From a virus (Duplodnaviria > Heunggongvirae > Uroviricota > Caudoviricetes): a stretch of 54,267 bases of DNA. The notes beneath the pieces were generated by a model. The model made no database searches and had not been told where the DNA came from. It worked only from the letters and a program-made list of their open reading frames with translations. The stretch covers positions 117,500 through 171,766 of the IMG/VR virus record IMGVR_UViG_3300042691_036629. One strand, 5' to 3'. A program made the position numbers and the translations under genes. This document shows, piece after piece, positions 40,673-51,071 of the stretch (position 1 is the stretch's first letter; each line of letters starts with the position of its first letter).

Positions 40673-40711
40673 AAAGCAAATATAAAATAATTTTTTAATA
40701 TATACAATATT

Positions 40712-46927: not shown

Positions 46928-47117
46928 ACCAAAAACAATTACATCAACTTTATTTTGAATTTTTGAAAGTGGTGGTAAAATAACTTTATCAACAACCCAT
47001 CTCTCAATCATCATATTTGGATCTTTTCTAGCATTGTGCTTAAGTGGTAATTTATCAATCTTTTACCACCTTTTGACAAAGAAAAATAATAGTTTATATT
47101 TATACAAATATAATAAA

Positions 47118-47570
47118 TTATTTTCTGTTCTGTTGTAAAAACTTTAAGTAATTTTCATTTCTTATGTTTTTCATTTTAACTATTAGTTTGTCCCACTCTA
47201 ACATTAAAGATTCTGGTATCTCTATACCTTTCATCTCAAACTCTTTAAGTATTTCTTCTTTAGTGAAACTACATTCAACAATACCTTCAGTCCATTGTTT
47301 AACCCATAAACCCCAACCTTTTTTACCACTGATTACAGCTTTAAGTATATTAGGGTGTTTTGTTCTTGGATTTACAAACTTAAATCTACCGTTGTCATAT
47401 TCTCTAAACGCAAACTTAGCTTCAGAACCGTTTTTGACGTAATCTACTTCGAAATTAGAACCACAAAAAGTTATTAAACCAGTTCTATAAATTTTGAAAT
47501 AAAACTCAAACATTTTATTAAAATTATCTGAGTATTTTTTTAATTTTCTATCGTTTCTAGAACCTACCAC
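47118..47570 (-). CDS. Hypothetical protein; probable true start ATG 47620 is displaced by a 1-nt frameshift
   Basis: Adding one A at 47615-47617 gives MKRVGGDKLTRIKKSLEVVGSRN... Confidence 0.7.
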   Translation of the reverse strand: MVGSRNDRKLKKYSDNFNKMFEFYFKIYRTGLITFCGSNFEVDYVKNGSEAKFAFREYDNGRFKFVNPRTKHPNILKAVISGKKGWGLWVKQWTEGIVECSFTKEEILKEFEMKGIEIPESLMLEWDKLIVKMKNIRNENYLKFLQQNRK

Positions 47571-47640
47571 TTCCAGTGATTTTTTTATTCTAGTTAGCTT
47601 ATCGCCTCCAACTCTTTCATATAATTTATTTTATTTTTAG

Positions 47641-47714
47641 TGGAGAATACCGGAATCGAACCGGTCACCTCTTGTCTGCCAGACAAGCGCTCTAGCCAAA
47701 TGAGCTAATTCCCC
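47641..47714 (-). tRNA. tRNA-Ala(GGC)
   Basis: Full cloverleaf; G3:U70; loop CT-GGC-AG; CCA not encoded. Confidence 0.95.
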
Positions 47715-47718
47715 AATT

Positions 47719-47862
47719 AAGTAGAGAAATTTAGATGAGTGTGTTTTTACTATGCTATCCATTACACCACCACCGCATTATTTTTATTTGAGCGGTGACC
47801 AGGACTCGAACCTGGATCAGTCGTTTGAAATACGAAGTAACACTCGTTCTTTACTACTACTT
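47719..47862 (-). ncRNA. Circularly permuted tRNA-like RNA without an anticodon loop
   Basis: 3' half (T-arm CCAGG-TTCGAGT-CCTGG, TCACCGC+T; 47791-47845) precedes a 14-nt spacer and the 5' half (GCGGTGG, D-arm; from 47776); the outer ends pair with each other. Confidence 0.75.
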
Positions 47863-47864
47863 TG

Positions 47865-47936
47865 AGCGAGAAATGAGATTCGAACTCACGACACTCTGGT
47901 TGGTAACCAGATACTCTACCACTGAGCTATTCTCGC
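47865..47936 (-). tRNA. tRNA-Gly(ACC)
   Basis: GCGAGAA/TTCTCGC+T (Gly identity G1-C72, C2-G71, G3-C70, U73); TCTGG-TT-ACC-AA-CCAGA. Confidence 0.9.
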
Positions 47937-47947
47937 AATTACAAAAG

Positions 47948-48094
47948 TTAAACTTTCAACTTTTGTTTTCTTTTTCTTTTGATCATCTTCATTATGAATT
48001 TGAATACATGATCATTTGCATCCTTTCTTAATTTTACCTTTGATGATTCGAAACTTCCCGTTAATACTTCTTTACTTTTTTTCATTTGTTTCAT
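47948..48094 (-). CDS. 48-aa basic peptide between tRNAs (not in ORF track)
   Basis: MKQMKKSKEVLTGSF...KRKRKQKLKV. Confidence 0.5.
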   Translation of the reverse strand: MKQMKKSKEVLTGSFESSKVKLRKDANDHVFKFIMKMIKRKRKQKLKV

Positions 48095-48110
48095 ATTTTT
48101 ATTTTTTGTG

Positions 48111-48184
48111 TGGAGCTAGGGGTGTACGATACCCCATCTCCGCATTGCAAGTGCGGTATGTTAGCCAGTTGTCACCATAGCCCC
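48111..48184 (-). tRNA. tRNA-Ala(TGC), atypical T-loop
   Basis: GGGGCTA/TAGCTCC with G3:U70; CCGCA-CT-TGC-AA-TGCGG; T-loop ATCGTAC. Confidence 0.9.
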
Positions 48185-48229
48185 AAATTGAAGGAAGACT
48201 AACCTTCGTTGTAACTTAAAGTCTTTTTG

Positions 48230-48317
48230 AGCAGGTAGTGGGATTCGAACCCACGATGTGAACCTTATCTGACCGGATTGGAAATCCGGAGCCATCGACC
48301 AACTAGGCGACACCTGC
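48230..48317 (-). tRNA. tRNA-Gly(TCC) with long variable region
   Basis: GCAGGTG/TACCTGC+T; CCGGA-TT-TCC-AA-TCCGG; 18-nt variable region; 88 nt in total. Confidence 0.9.
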
Positions 48318-48854
48318 ATGTATTTCTCTATGACAATTAGAACAAACTAAAATACATTTATCTAATTCATTTTTTATTCTATCCCAAGAAAGATTATATT
48401 TCCCGGAGATTGTAAAATCTTTTTCACTCGGATTGGTATGATGAAAATCAAGTGCTTGAATACATTTATTATACCCACATAAAATACATTCACCACCTTT
48501 ATACTCAACCGATTTTATTTTTAACATTGTTCTTCTTTTCAATCTATAAATTTTAGAATTTTTTTTAGCTGCATCACTATCAACCCTCTTAATATCAGCA
48601 TGTTTAATTACTGTTGTTTCTGAAATTCCAAAATATATAGATGTTTCTTTTTTTGTGTGTGTTTTATAATATTCTTTTAATTGTAAAATTTCATCTTCAT
48701 TTAACTCTTTATATTTTTTTAATCCAATATCACTTAGTCCATTTTCCTTACACCATTTTGATACTATTGATTTTGAACATTTTAATATTTCACTTATTTT
48801 ATTTAAACTGAATCCATTTTTTCTCAATTCAATTATTTTACTTTCCAAACTCAT
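48303..48854 (-). mobile_element. Free-standing HNH homing endonuclease with N-terminal HTH
   Basis: CILCG...LDFHH...E..KC..VCSNCHREIH; last codons overlap the tRNA-Gly 5' end. Confidence 0.85.
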
Positions 48855-48910
48855 ATACTTTCCAATTCTTTCTTATATATATTAAAGTATATGGGTTCTC
48901 ACCCAAAATG

Positions 48911-48991
48911 TCGATAGGGTGGGATTCGAACCCACGTTTTCAACTTCCCGCTACGGATATTCAATGTATAAGATTGAACCGGTACCTATCG
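48911..48991 (-). ncRNA. D-armless tRNA-like RNA with CU-UAU-AC loop
   Basis: CGATAGG/CCTATCG+A; T-arm GTGGG-TTCGAAT-CCCAC; TTCAAT-CTTATAC-ATTGAA hairpin starts only 6 nt after the acceptor strand. Confidence 0.65.
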
Positions 48992-49061
48992 TTTTAATTC
49001 TTTTCGTGAATCACTCGGTGGATTTTGATAGACCAGTAGACCACTTACTACCTGTTTCTTA

Positions 49062-49376
49062 TTATAACTTTATAAATGTTTCACTCTTAATTGATTTACT
49101 AATCCATCTAGCTAATTCAGAACCTCTAATTTCAGCTTCAAATCTAGTTGTGCCTAAATCTTCTGATAAAATAACAGTTTCTACTTCATACATAGATAAA
49201 CCACTTTCATCATTAAATGTTGGTCCTTCTTGTGTTGTTGATATTGGGAATTGGTATAACTCACCAAATACTTCAACATTGTAATATAAATTACCAGCGA
49301 TATAGTGACTGAATCTTGCCATTGTTTTAGACTTCATTAAGTCTTTTTTTACTTCTACTTCATTAAACATAATCAT
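49062..49376 (-). CDS. Hypothetical protein in tRNA cluster
   Basis: 104 aa ORF. Confidence 0.75.
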   Translation of the reverse strand: MIMFNEVEVKKDLMKSKTMARFSHYIAGNLYYNVEVFGELYQFPISTTQEGPTFNDESGLSMYEVETVILSEDLGTTRFEAEIRGSELARWISKSIKSETFIKL

Positions 49377-49390
49377 TTATTTTTTATTTG

Positions 49391-49473
49391 TTGGAAGGGA
49401 GGGATTCGAACCCCCGTACCCGTTAGGGAGCGGATTTACAGTCCGCCGCATTTAACCACTCTGCCACCTTCCA
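49391..49473 (-). tRNA. tRNA-Tyr(GTA), class II, U1-A72
   Basis: TGGAAGG/CCTTCCA+A; GCGGA-CT-GTA-AA-TCCGC; long variable arm. Confidence 0.92.
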
Positions 49474-49487
49474 GTTTTTATTTCATT

Positions 49488-50114
49488 TTATTTTTTTAAT
49501 CTTCCCAATTCCCATCCTTCAGGGATTATCTCATTTTTTTTTATTTTTTTATTCTCATACCCATTTGTTATCCAACAAGTTCCAAATTGAGAATTATTCT
49601 CACCTTTTTGAATTTCACTCAACTTTTCACTTATCTTAATTTTAGATTCTTGTGAATGTTTTTTACCACTGAAACCTTTACTATTTAAATTATTTTTATT
49701 ACCTTTTAGTTTATTTGATATTTTTTTTATCCAATTATCTTTAAAATCAATATCTTTCCTTTTTTCATTTAGTCTATCATTACCAGCTTTAGAACATTTC
49801 ATTTGATGTTCCTCATCTTTAAATCCACCACTACCACCAACTCTCAAATTCATACAAAGAGTTTCATTTATTAGATTTGATGTAATAAGATCAATTTCCG
49901 CTTTTATCAGTTCATCTCTATTATCATAAAATTCCAATATTTCAATTTTAAAATTCTCTTTACCATACTTTCTTATTGAGTATCTTAATTTTTTACCAGA
50001 TCCCAAATATCCATCGTTTAAATTATTTGTACTGTGCATACCATAATAATAATTATGATTTATCAAATTTGTCGTTTTATACAAATAGTGATAACATTTA
50101 ATTTTTCTTGGCAT
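49488..50114 (-). mobile_element. Seg-like GIY-YIG homing endonuclease with NUMOD3-like motif
   Basis: YLYKTTNLIN..YYYGMH...YLGSG...E..LI...MN...GG; GKKHSQESKIKIS. Confidence 0.9.
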
Positions 50115-50170
50115 TTTTAAATTTTATTTTTATTTATATATTAAATATAATAGTACAAAAATGTCTAAAG

Positions 50171-50238
50171 TGGGAGACGTGAGACTCGAACTCACCTGCT
50201 AGGATTTTACAGATCCGGCCGTCACCATAACCCCTCCC
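50171..50238 (-). tRNA. Reduced tRNA-Tyr(GTA)-like gene (68 nt, possibly pseudo)
   Basis: GGAT-CT-GTA-AA-ATCC; T-arm GTGAG-TTCGAGT-CTCAC; shrunken D-arm; short variable loop; 7/66 mismatch. Confidence 0.6.
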
Positions 50239-50249
50239 AAGTATAAACT

Positions 50250-50281
50250 AAAAAACCCAACTGATTTTGTCAGTTGGGTTT
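50250..50281 (-). terminator. Attenuator-type intrinsic terminator ahead of the tRNA operon
   Basis: AAACCCAACTGA-CAAAA-TCAGTTGGGTTT, ending in a U6 run. Confidence 0.85.
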
Positions 50282-50306
50282 CATAATATTTTTTTATTAA
50301 AATATA

Positions 50307-50402
50307 TTATAATACACTTTTACTGACAATAGGTAATCTATACCCCGCCTCATAAGCCTCGTAGCCTCTCGCTTCTATTGATATGTTAACTATTGTTCTC
50401 AT
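50307..50402 (-). CDS. Putative 31-aa attenuator leader peptide (not in ORF track)
   Basis: MRTIVNISIEARGYEAYEAGYRLPIVSKSVL; lies between promoter and terminator; TTGTCAGT (50322-50329) is complementary to the terminator's ACTGACAA (50267-50274). Confidence 0.75.
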   Translation of the reverse strand: MRTIVNISIEARGYEAYEAGYRLPIVSKSVL

Positions 50403-50436
50403 TGTATATTTTTTTAATTGTTTTTATTTTACTCTA

Positions 50437-50467
50437 CAAAGATACGGAAGTTTTTTAAAACACCAAA
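50437..50467 (-). promoter_or_regulatory. Bacteroidota sigma-A-type promoter of the leader/tRNA operon
   Basis: TTTG-N19-TATCTTTG. Confidence 0.85.
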
Positions 50468-50487
50468 TCTTTTTATATTTTTTTTAG

Positions 50488-50561
50488 TAGCGGGAGCTGG
50501 ATTCGAACCAACGACCTCAAGGTTATGAGCCTTGCGAGCTACCAGACTGCTCTATCCCGCG
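50488..50561 (-). tRNA. Initiator tRNA-fMet(CAT)
   Basis: C1xU72 mismatch; CAAGG-CT-CAT-AA-CCTTG; full cloverleaf. Confidence 0.92.
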
Positions 50562-50665
50562 ATGTAAGTATATATATTAAAAAGTTTTTCTTCCTTTTTA
50601 ATTTTTATGATATTTTTTTGAAAAAGTTTAAAAAAACTTTATATTTTTTTATAAATATATACAAT

Positions 50666-50866
50666 ATGGATGATTTAGTAAGAAAAATTGGAGTTGAAAA
50701 GATAAAAGTTTTTGAAAAAGACCTTGATTACTTTATTGATTATTATAAAGATAAAGCTTTATCACAAGGATATAAAGGTGATTTAAAATTTAAAAAAGAG
50801 GGTCCAAATATTATTATATTTGTTAAACTTATTTATGAGGATAATAATTCTTCTGAATATAAATAG
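50666..50866 (+). CDS. Hypothetical protein (start re-called at ATG 50666)
   Basis: AAATATATA 4 nt before ATG; ORF-track extension is antisense to tRNA-fMet. Confidence 0.65.
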   Translation: MDDLVRKIGVEKIKVFEKDLDYFIDYYKDKALSQGYKGDLKFKKEGPNIIIFVKLIYEDNNSSEYK

Positions 50867-51071
50867 TTTCACCTAATCTATATTTATTCACACTAAAAAC
50901 AAATGTATCACCACAATCTGTTACTATTGTATATTTAGGTTTTACATCTAAAGTAGATCCGACTTCTTCTTCAATTTGAGTTACTACACATTCTTTAAAC
51001 TCAACTTTTGGTTTATTTGAATGATAACAACCACTTATAATTAAAGTTAATATAAATAATAAATGTTTCAT
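50829..51071 (-). CDS. Putative lipoprotein
   Basis: MKHLLFILTLIISG-C lipobox. Confidence 0.75.
   Translation of the reverse strand: MKHLLFILTLIISGCYHSNKPKVEFKECVVTQIEEEVGSTLDVKPKYTIVTDCGDTFVFSVNKYRLGETIYIQKNYYPHK

Follow-up and report, generated by a model that had tools for sequence, protein, structure and literature searches.

Leader-peptide attenuators of amino-acid operons, such as trpL, hisL, leuL, pheL, thrL and ilvL of Escherichia coli and Salmonella, consist of a short promoter-proximal open reading frame (ORF) rich in regulatory codons and an intrinsic terminator in front of the structural genes. The antiterminator uses the 5' arm of the terminator and is destroyed by a ribosome that reaches the stop codon, and a stalled ribosome gives read-through; thrL and ilvL are multivalent and read several amino acids at once. 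In addition, the pheM leader of E. coli pheST places phenylalanyl-tRNA synthetase under attenuation control, and thus a cognate-codon leader peptide controls a component of translation by the level of the charged cognate tRNA. T-box riboswitches also couple the status of a specific tRNA to terminator read-through by a choice between antiterminator and terminator, but need no ribosome, since uncharged tRNA is bound directly through the T-box sequence and a single specifier codon. tRNA genes themselves are generally treated as constitutive or growth-rate controlled. Here a stretch of 54,267 nucleotides (nt) of a Caudoviricetes phage is described (IMG/VR record IMGVR_UViG_3300042691_036629, positions 117,500 to 171,766; in the following "the window"), in which a short ORF and a terminator stand in front of a tRNA array. 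As judged from this DNA and its relatives, the element is most likely a ribosome-mediated (leader-peptide) transcription attenuator which gates phage tRNA genes.

The features listed above for the amino-acid leaders have their counterparts in the phage element, including the multivalent reading of thrL and ilvL and, in the proposed mechanism, read-through by a stalled ribosome. The differences lie in the controlled genes, which are tRNA genes, so that the product would feed back on decoding and not on amino-acid supply, in the number of isotypes sampled by one leader (up to about 14), in the lack of a clear 1:2 anti-antiterminator, with the stop codon in a hairpin nested in the antiterminator instead, and in the location on a phage with a host among the Bacteroidota. 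Whereas pheM acts on the synthetase for one amino acid, the target here would be the tRNAs themselves, for many amino acids; unlike in T-boxes, the signal is frame-dependent and a T-box match is missing. The Rfam leader families (Trp, His, Thr, Leu, Phe) have no match in 47000–51000 of the window, and the resemblance is functional, not homologous. In mycobacteria, leaderless short ORFs with polycysteine runs of a single codon type attenuate downstream genes (bioRxiv 10.1101/834739); they reportedly respond to Cys only and target protein-coding operons, not tRNA genes. In a full-text literature search no account was found, for phages or for cells, of tRNA genes under leader-peptide attenuation, although such an absence is not a proof. 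The element is best described as a case of a known mechanism, leader-peptide attenuation, with tRNA genes as a new class of target and with many-valued codon matching.

The element begins downstream of a tRNA-Met gene (50561–50487; all features are on the minus strand of the window unless stated otherwise). Its promoter, read directly in the sequence, consists of a TTG (50466–50464), a 19-nt spacer and TATCTTTG (50444–50437). It fits the sigma-A consensus of Bacteroidota, TTG-N19-TAnnTTTG, and not the E. coli type, and relatives retain both this box and its spacing. Among 34 leader classes, TAnnTTTG was found not more than 110 nt upstream in 21, compared with 8.6% of background windows, and an AT-rich motif, TTTTWAWATATA, lies upstream of ten. 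Alone, the −7 box TAnnTTTG is not enriched in the window (97 occurrences, 91 expected), and only the full TTG-N19-box and its position are taken as evidence for the promoter. About 28 nt of A-rich untranslated sequence separate the promoter from the leader ORF of 31 codons plus stop (50402–50307, with ATG at 50402 and TAA at 50309–50307), likewise read directly and kept in relatives. Codons 1–7 form the start block common to the family (M-x-T-I-x-N-I), and codons 7–21 (50384–50340) the control-codon block, which comprises two Ile (ATA), one Ser, three Glu, three Ala, one Arg, two Gly and three Tyr codons. Ten of these 15 codons match isotypes encoded downstream (Tyr, Ile, Gly, Ala), and the three Glu codons match tRNA-Glu genes of the nearest relatives (L140, L147, L151). 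The next element is a small hairpin (GGUAU-AGA-UUACC, 50344–50332), located between the control block and the antiterminator and kept as a 5-bp stem in two relatives (L004, L006), which may possibly serve as a pause or spacer element.

Codons 25–27 contain the 5' strand of the antiterminator, TTGTCAGT (50329–50322), an exact complement of ACTGACAA (50274–50267), which comprises the top of the terminator left arm and three loop bases. The intrinsic terminator (50282–50250) is composed of a stem-loop (50282–50252) with 13 pairs, five of them G-C, a 5-nt loop CAAAA, a stability of −17.6 kcal/mol and a T6 tract (50255–50250). Folding of the nascent RNA places an inner AU-rich hairpin (50312–50281), whose 5' arm holds the stop codon, inside the antiterminator. 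A sequence-only reading of the window had already named a sigma-A promoter, a 31-codon ORF, an exact 8-nt complement in codons 25–27 and a U-tailed terminator, and each of them was found again at these positions. It had also described a block of Tyr, Ala and Gly codons. This is right for codons 11–21 as far as the three Tyr, three Ala and two Gly codons are concerned, but two Glu and one Arg codon stand among them and the block as a whole includes Ile (ATA) and Glu. Since Tyr, Ala and Gly make up 13.4% of the residues in long ORFs of this phage, eight in 11 residues has a binomial p of about 1e-5, a value calculated post hoc. For the window lineage the data support Tyr/Glu/Ile/Gly/Ala as the sensed set, beyond Tyr/Ala/Gly.

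Relatives were collected by pattern scans of IMG/VR and of metagenome contigs. The initial start-block pattern was loose and gave 117 loci, mostly by chance, and hence the loci were filtered by a script; one further candidate (L159) was dropped as a chance match because its hairpin was not convincing. A generic search over all collected loci, meant to avoid circularity with the start-block pattern, accepted any ATG ORF of 10–60 codons with no constraint on the peptide, if it ended not more than 70 nt before a hairpin-plus-T5 and a tRNA followed within 120 nt; the tRNA isotypes downstream were called by ARAGORN. The survey yielded about 70 instances, all with the layout promoter, short ORF, intrinsic terminator and tRNA gene(s); their leader peptides, about 40 in number when identical ones are counted once, fall into at least 12 specificity classes. 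Typical of the family are the start block, a variable middle and, before the tRNA genes, a terminator of the AAACCC...GGGTTTTTT type. The window can be aligned with a 634-kb uncultured phage (LR745206.1) across tRNA-Met, promoter, ORF, terminator and the first tRNA-like gene; the two ORFs differ by an in-frame indel of 12 nt and the terminators by compensatory changes. In another metagenome, a contig (L140) encodes exactly the peptide of the window with synonymous changes (TAC to TAT, GAG to GAA), and its terminator stem differs by two compensatory pairs; variants of the leader occur in L147, L150 and L151. A blastn search with the leader alone gave no match in 50,697 phage records, the match to LR745206.1 being carried by the flanking tRNAs only. 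The start-block and terminator pattern, which covers this subfamily only and not the others, had no match in 185,579 prokaryote genomes, and accordingly no cellular or prophage copy of the window subfamily was found there.

The start block, ATGAnnACAATnnnTAACATA, is kept across very different specificities (L004, L007, L029, L042, L064, L069, L160 and others). Candidate reasons for its conservation are the context of the translation start, pairing with the ORF end, seen for the start-block codons in some classes only, or common descent by duplication.

The residues encoded in the variable middle follow the set of tRNA genes behind each leader. In start-block leaders, where residues 8–16 were compared, the block SSQQSQSQ is followed by genes for tRNA-Ser(gct), Ser(tga), Gln and Gln, SSSSSRSNR by Arg(acg), Ser(tga) and Asn, AYYYEGE by Glu, Tyr, Glu and Tyr, FEFNVIED by Asp, Glu, Ile(gat), Phe and Ile(tat), AIIAIGKGK by Ile(tat), Gly and Ala, AIIGGGAGA by an odd UAU-loop RNA, Gly and Ala, and VQQPQQHP by Pro, Pro and His. 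The window-type block precedes Glu, Tyr, Glu, Ile(tat), Gly and Ala in the nearest relatives of the window. The generic search added many modules with other N-termini, such as a QQQQ leader in front of four tRNA-Gln genes, ALLLCLLVV in front of Cys, Val, Val, Leu and Leu, and FDFAIEAAEADF in front of Ala, Phe, Phe, Glu, Val and Asp; a 36-codon leader (L116) is followed by ten tRNAs, and all its residues 2–24 belong to their isotypes. When the blocks and arrays of six independent specificity types are paired as they occur, 37 of 54 residues match, the unique best of 720 permutations (mean 13.2), and the product of the binomial probabilities under phage amino-acid frequencies is 1e-23. In 35 non-redundant modules from the generic search, 273 of 476 block residues (57%) match, compared with a permuted mean of 118.5 (z 10.6; reached by none of 100,000 permutations). 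The match falls to 23% and 18% in frames +1 and +2 of the same modules, and to 28% and 23% in the N- and C-terminal residues of the same peptides. Conversely, the leaders contain codons for 97% of the isotypes encoded behind them (70% after permutation).

The correspondence also extends to the structure of the operons. In relatives with an array split into two gated units, one leader is of the Tyr/Glu type and the second of the Ile/Gly/Ala type, whereas the single leader of the window type holds all five. If both isoacceptors follow, both Ser boxes or both Arg boxes are used in the leader, and ATA is used where Ile(tat) follows. Matched codons in the blocks of the 35 modules are enriched in G/C-ending ones, with a third-position G+C fraction of 0.39 compared with 0.17 in phage ORFs. 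Such codons, for example GCG, GGC, GGG, GAG, CAG and TCG, are wobble-read or rare, and they may make the sensor more sensitive. The comparison with relatives, set beforehand as a test of the attenuator interpretation, thus showed a conserved leader and antiterminator and control codons that co-vary with the tRNAs downstream.

Antiterminator and terminator change together as well. In 19 terminator-stem classes the last ca. 30 nt of the ORF and up to 12 nt past the stop were compared with the left arm plus loop, and in all 19 the 3' end of the ORF pairs with the left arm of its own terminator, the strongest duplex lying between −28 and +8 relative to the stop codon. The sequence of the duplex varies with the stem (GTCAGAC, GGTTTGGG, GGCTGGG, GCTCGG, GTGCGCGG, TCCTAAGAG and others). 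Cognate duplexes average −12.6 kcal/mol and non-cognate ones −6.7, a sum not reached in 20,000 permutations, and against dinucleotide shuffles the mean z is −3.0 (window −4.1); the window duplex of −10.7 kcal/mol is reached by 0.4% of its shuffles. An alignment of nine sequences of the window subfamily has 98% pairing and four covarying pairs in the terminator; the 6-bp core of the antiterminator is paired in 98% of the cells with one compensatory pair, and one position changes in step on the ORF, the left arm and the right arm. Predicted folds of nascent RNA up to the terminator loop show the left arm held by the antiterminator in 19 of 19 classes, with 9.7 nt of it held compared with 4.7 after shuffling. 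For 13 of the 19 the prediction places the stop codon in a small hairpin inside the antiterminator; in L069, L170 and L143 it is part of the antiterminator helix itself. In the window the nascent antiterminator fold has −19.6 kcal/mol, and the complete RNA favours the terminator (−28.1 compared with −20.4 kcal/mol when the antiterminator is forced). A nascent antiterminator and a final terminator are the typical kinetic set-up of classical attenuators. The folding of alternative structures and the comparative evidence thus both speak for the attenuator that the sequence-only reading had proposed.

Transcription would start at the host-type promoter, and the first 31 codons would be translated. 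The array supplies the tRNAs that decode codons 7–21 (Tyr, Ile-AUA, Gly and Ala, in the lineage also Glu). With quick decoding the ribosome would reach the stop codon and unwind the 5' strand of the antiterminator together with the inner hairpin; the left arm would then be free to pair with the right arm, and transcription would stop at the T tract. If a cognate charged tRNA is scarce, the ribosome would wait upstream and TTGTCAGT would pair with ACTGACAA as soon as the left arm emerges, by which the terminator would be blocked and RNA polymerase would continue into the tRNA genes. The outcome would be a negative feedback of tRNA supply on the transcription of tRNA genes. Translation of the leader, stalling and regulated read-through are steps that we infer, and the direction of the switch follows from the geometry. 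All ORFs end 19–45 nt before the left arm of the terminator; therefore a ribosome could not cover the terminator but only dismantle the antiterminator, and it follows that fast decoding would terminate and slow decoding would read through. A pyrBI-type model, in which the ribosome covers the terminator, was rejected for the same distance.

Some variants separate the conservation of the peptide from that of the RNA. Compared with L042, one A is deleted after the block in L172 and L124, by which the whole C-terminal peptide is changed and the stop is moved by 4 nt, and yet the nucleotides, including the antiterminator, are kept; L001 uses another frame for a nucleotide string that is common to L003, L029 and L127. 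The 3' part is therefore conserved as RNA and the middle as codons. Such variants bear on the view that the leader simply encodes a small protein, from a promoter and with a terminator of its own, and lies within the array by chance, the tRNAs arising by leaky read-through or from other promoters. The seven N-terminal residues conserved in many classes, the well conserved peptide within the window subfamily, the strong terminator (−17.6 kcal/mol) and the other promoter-like motifs downstream in the window would fit such a gene. It leaves unexplained, however, why the middle of the peptide mirrors the tRNAs behind it, why frame-shifted variants with unrelated C-termini persist and why the ORF end constantly pairs with the left arm of its own terminator. 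In addition, the first tRNA follows the terminator at 2–30 nt, or at about 90–117 nt with an unrecognised tRNA-like gene in between. As the distance past the T tract is usually the shorter one, there is no room for a promoter, and no promoter box fits in the gap behind the window terminator either. A small-protein gene is thus highly improbable.

Nor do we give much credit to tRNA sensing without translation, in which codons bind anticodons in the manner of a T-box specifier, or to a small regulatory RNA as the purpose of termination. The direct tRNA control of terminators in T-boxes, the unusually structured leader RNA (z = −4.1 for the whole window leader) and a terminated product that would be a stable RNA of ca. 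180 nt with a hairpin end are in line with these ideas, but only when read from the ATG do the leaders match their tRNA sets (57% compared with the 23% and 18% given above). Start and stop are in frame in all instances, and the position of the stop inside the antiterminator structure is meaningful only for a ribosome; moreover, apart from tRNAs no Rfam family, the T-box included, gives a match in 47000–51000 at E-values up to 10 that reaches its gathering score. Improbable, too, is a translated leader with a hairpin that acts after transcription, as a 3' stabiliser or processing signal following a cut by RNase P, or with reversed logic, in which smooth translation would favour tRNA expression in a positive feedback. 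Only 12 nt separate the hairpin from the start of the tRNA-like gene, and it would become the 3' end after such a cut, and the direction of the switch is deduced from the geometry only. Against this, the hairpin has the full form of an intrinsic terminator in every class, a G+C-rich stem followed by T6–T8, and at a distance of 19–45 nt from the left arm the ribosome can only destroy the antiterminator.

Several observations weigh against the leader-peptide attenuator or narrow it. With a ribosome on the stop codon most of TTGTCAGT would stay uncovered, except for a few bases at its end, and masking would therefore work mostly via the inner hairpin and timing. A trp-like anti-antiterminator (segment 1:2) was sought and weakly found, since pairing of the start region with the ORF end has a mean z of −1.4 (window −0.7) and is significant in some classes only. 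In the window block three Glu, one Arg and one Ser codon have no cognate phage tRNA gene there. The fit at the codon level is modest, 85% of the matched codons being decodable by a downstream anticodon compared with 73% expected from synonymous usage, and the variants within the blocks comprise 12 synonymous and 19 nonsynonymous changes, which favours neither side. Contigs of a freshwater metatranscriptome run (X12) match parts of the phage, none of them spanning the leader, the terminator or the first tRNA-like gene. Finally, a promoter-like motif discussed below, TTTAATATATA, could feed the later tRNA genes of the window independently of the attenuator; because of these downstream motifs the window attenuator strictly gates the first tRNA-like gene and read-through transcripts only.

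If codon-by-codon feedback on the transcription of tRNA genes is true, it would be a new principle for such genes and a concrete answer to the long-standing question of the mode, the timing and the purpose of tRNA array expression in phages. More speculative, and possible rather than probable, is the idea that the codon-matched leaders, one per tRNA block, form a multi-channel sensor of decoding speed, by which a selective loss of tRNAs leads to transcription of exactly the replacement set. Host anticodon nucleases, other tRNA-targeting defences, phage-induced decay and the demand of AT-rich phage messages would then be the sources of tRNA loss, and the enrichment of G/C-ending codons would be a tuning of the sensitivity. 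Furthermore, the leader family is a natural series of attenuators of differing specificity, useful for work on attenuation kinetics and for the construction of codon- or tRNA-specific biosensors.

The same design is present in two modules of a cultured phage, Cellulophaga phage phi17:2_18 (KT962247.1). The first module consists of a promoter box, a 22-codon ORF with the run Q-R-L-H-L-Q-E-L-E-Q-P, a terminator and genes for tRNA-Pro, Glu, Gln, His, Leu, Leu and Arg. In the second, which likewise has a terminator, the ORF is made up of T, K, G, I, V, D, A, R and Y, and the tRNAs are Ala, Ile, Gly, Met, Asp, Thr, Val, Arg, Met and Tyr. The T tracts behind the two leaders lie at about 5435 and about 6409 of L184. 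In both, the predicted nascent fold is an antiterminator around a hairpin with the stop codon. A third ORF of this phage (L184 8176–8277), with a partial codon match and no clear terminator, was not counted. With phi17:2_18 and Cellulophaga baltica #18 a host-phage pair suited to a test of the model is available.

Behind the window terminator, 12 nt past the T tract, begins a non-canonical tRNA-like RNA of 68 nt (50238–50171) with the anticodon loop CUGUAAA (GUA, Tyr). Neither ARAGORN nor Rfam calls it, and a consensus from six phages has a cloverleaf-like fold of 18 pairs, seven of which covary. From the bacterial class II tRNA-Tyr it differs by its acceptor stem of 6 bp, a mini D hairpin of 3 bp and a variable region that is short. 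The remaining array (49473–47640), which read-through past the terminator would reach, comprises tRNA-Tyr(GTA) (49473–49390), a D-armless tRNA-like RNA with a UAU loop (48991–48911), tRNA-Gly(TCC) (48317–48229), tRNA-Ala(TGC) (48184–48110), tRNA-Gly(ACC) (47936–47864) and tRNA-Ala(GGC) (47714–47640). Two canonical genes each for Tyr, Ala and Gly had been expected from the first inspection of the sequence; this is correct for Ala and Gly, but only one of the two Tyr genes is canonical. The UAU-loop RNA lacks the D arm but has a normal T arm; its acceptor stem is 7 bp long, and C-U-UAU-A-C caps a further stem of 6 bp. Ile-rich (ATA) leaders precede similar RNAs in L064, L130 and L137, and therefore the leaders predict the UAU-loop RNA as a decoder of AUA. 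A leader thus predicts the identity of tRNA-like genes missed by tRNA finders, here the GUA- and UAU-loop RNAs.

Three ORFs interrupt the array. The first (50114–49488) has a weak match to GIY-YIG plus NUMOD3, the second (49376–49062) encodes 104 amino acids and is unassigned, and in the third (48854–48303) Pfam shows a helix-turn-helix and visual inspection a Cys/His HNH-like motif. The first and the third, each with a promoter-like motif of its own, are putative homing-endonuclease genes. At the positions of the first two ORFs, the compact arrays of the nearest relatives (L140, L151) contain tRNA-Glu genes. A tRNA-Glu gene was found neither in the window nor in the 171-kb record, and the three Glu codons of the window leader look like a remnant of the ancestral tRNA set.

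The motif TTTAATATATA occurs 13 times in the window (0.86 expected), just upstream of genes, and is probably a phage-specific class of promoter. It stands before tRNA-Met (50581–50571), before the first (50145–50135) and the third (48886–48876) of the interrupting ORFs, and also on the plus strand at 40694–40704. In relatives it is found, as TTTTWAWATATA, upstream of leaders of the Ile/Gly/Ala type too. Some relatives (L162, L003 490–560) possess a second TTG-N19-TAnnTTTG promoter between the terminator and the next tRNA, the box lying about 60 nt past the terminator in L162. Here the same tRNA genes could be reached both through the attenuator and constitutively, unless the gene once behind the attenuator was lost.

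The DNA is most likely that of a freshwater phage of Bacteroidota. The virus contig has a length of 171.8 kb, a G+C content of 27.7% and an estimated completeness of 62%. Outside the window it encodes a 573-amino-acid phage protein (G000:C1:70563-72287) with Por_Secre_tail, the C-terminal sorting domain of type IX secretion. This domain is a Bacteroidota-specific signal and supports the host assignment. Near-identical DNA is present in lake and freshwater metagenomes.

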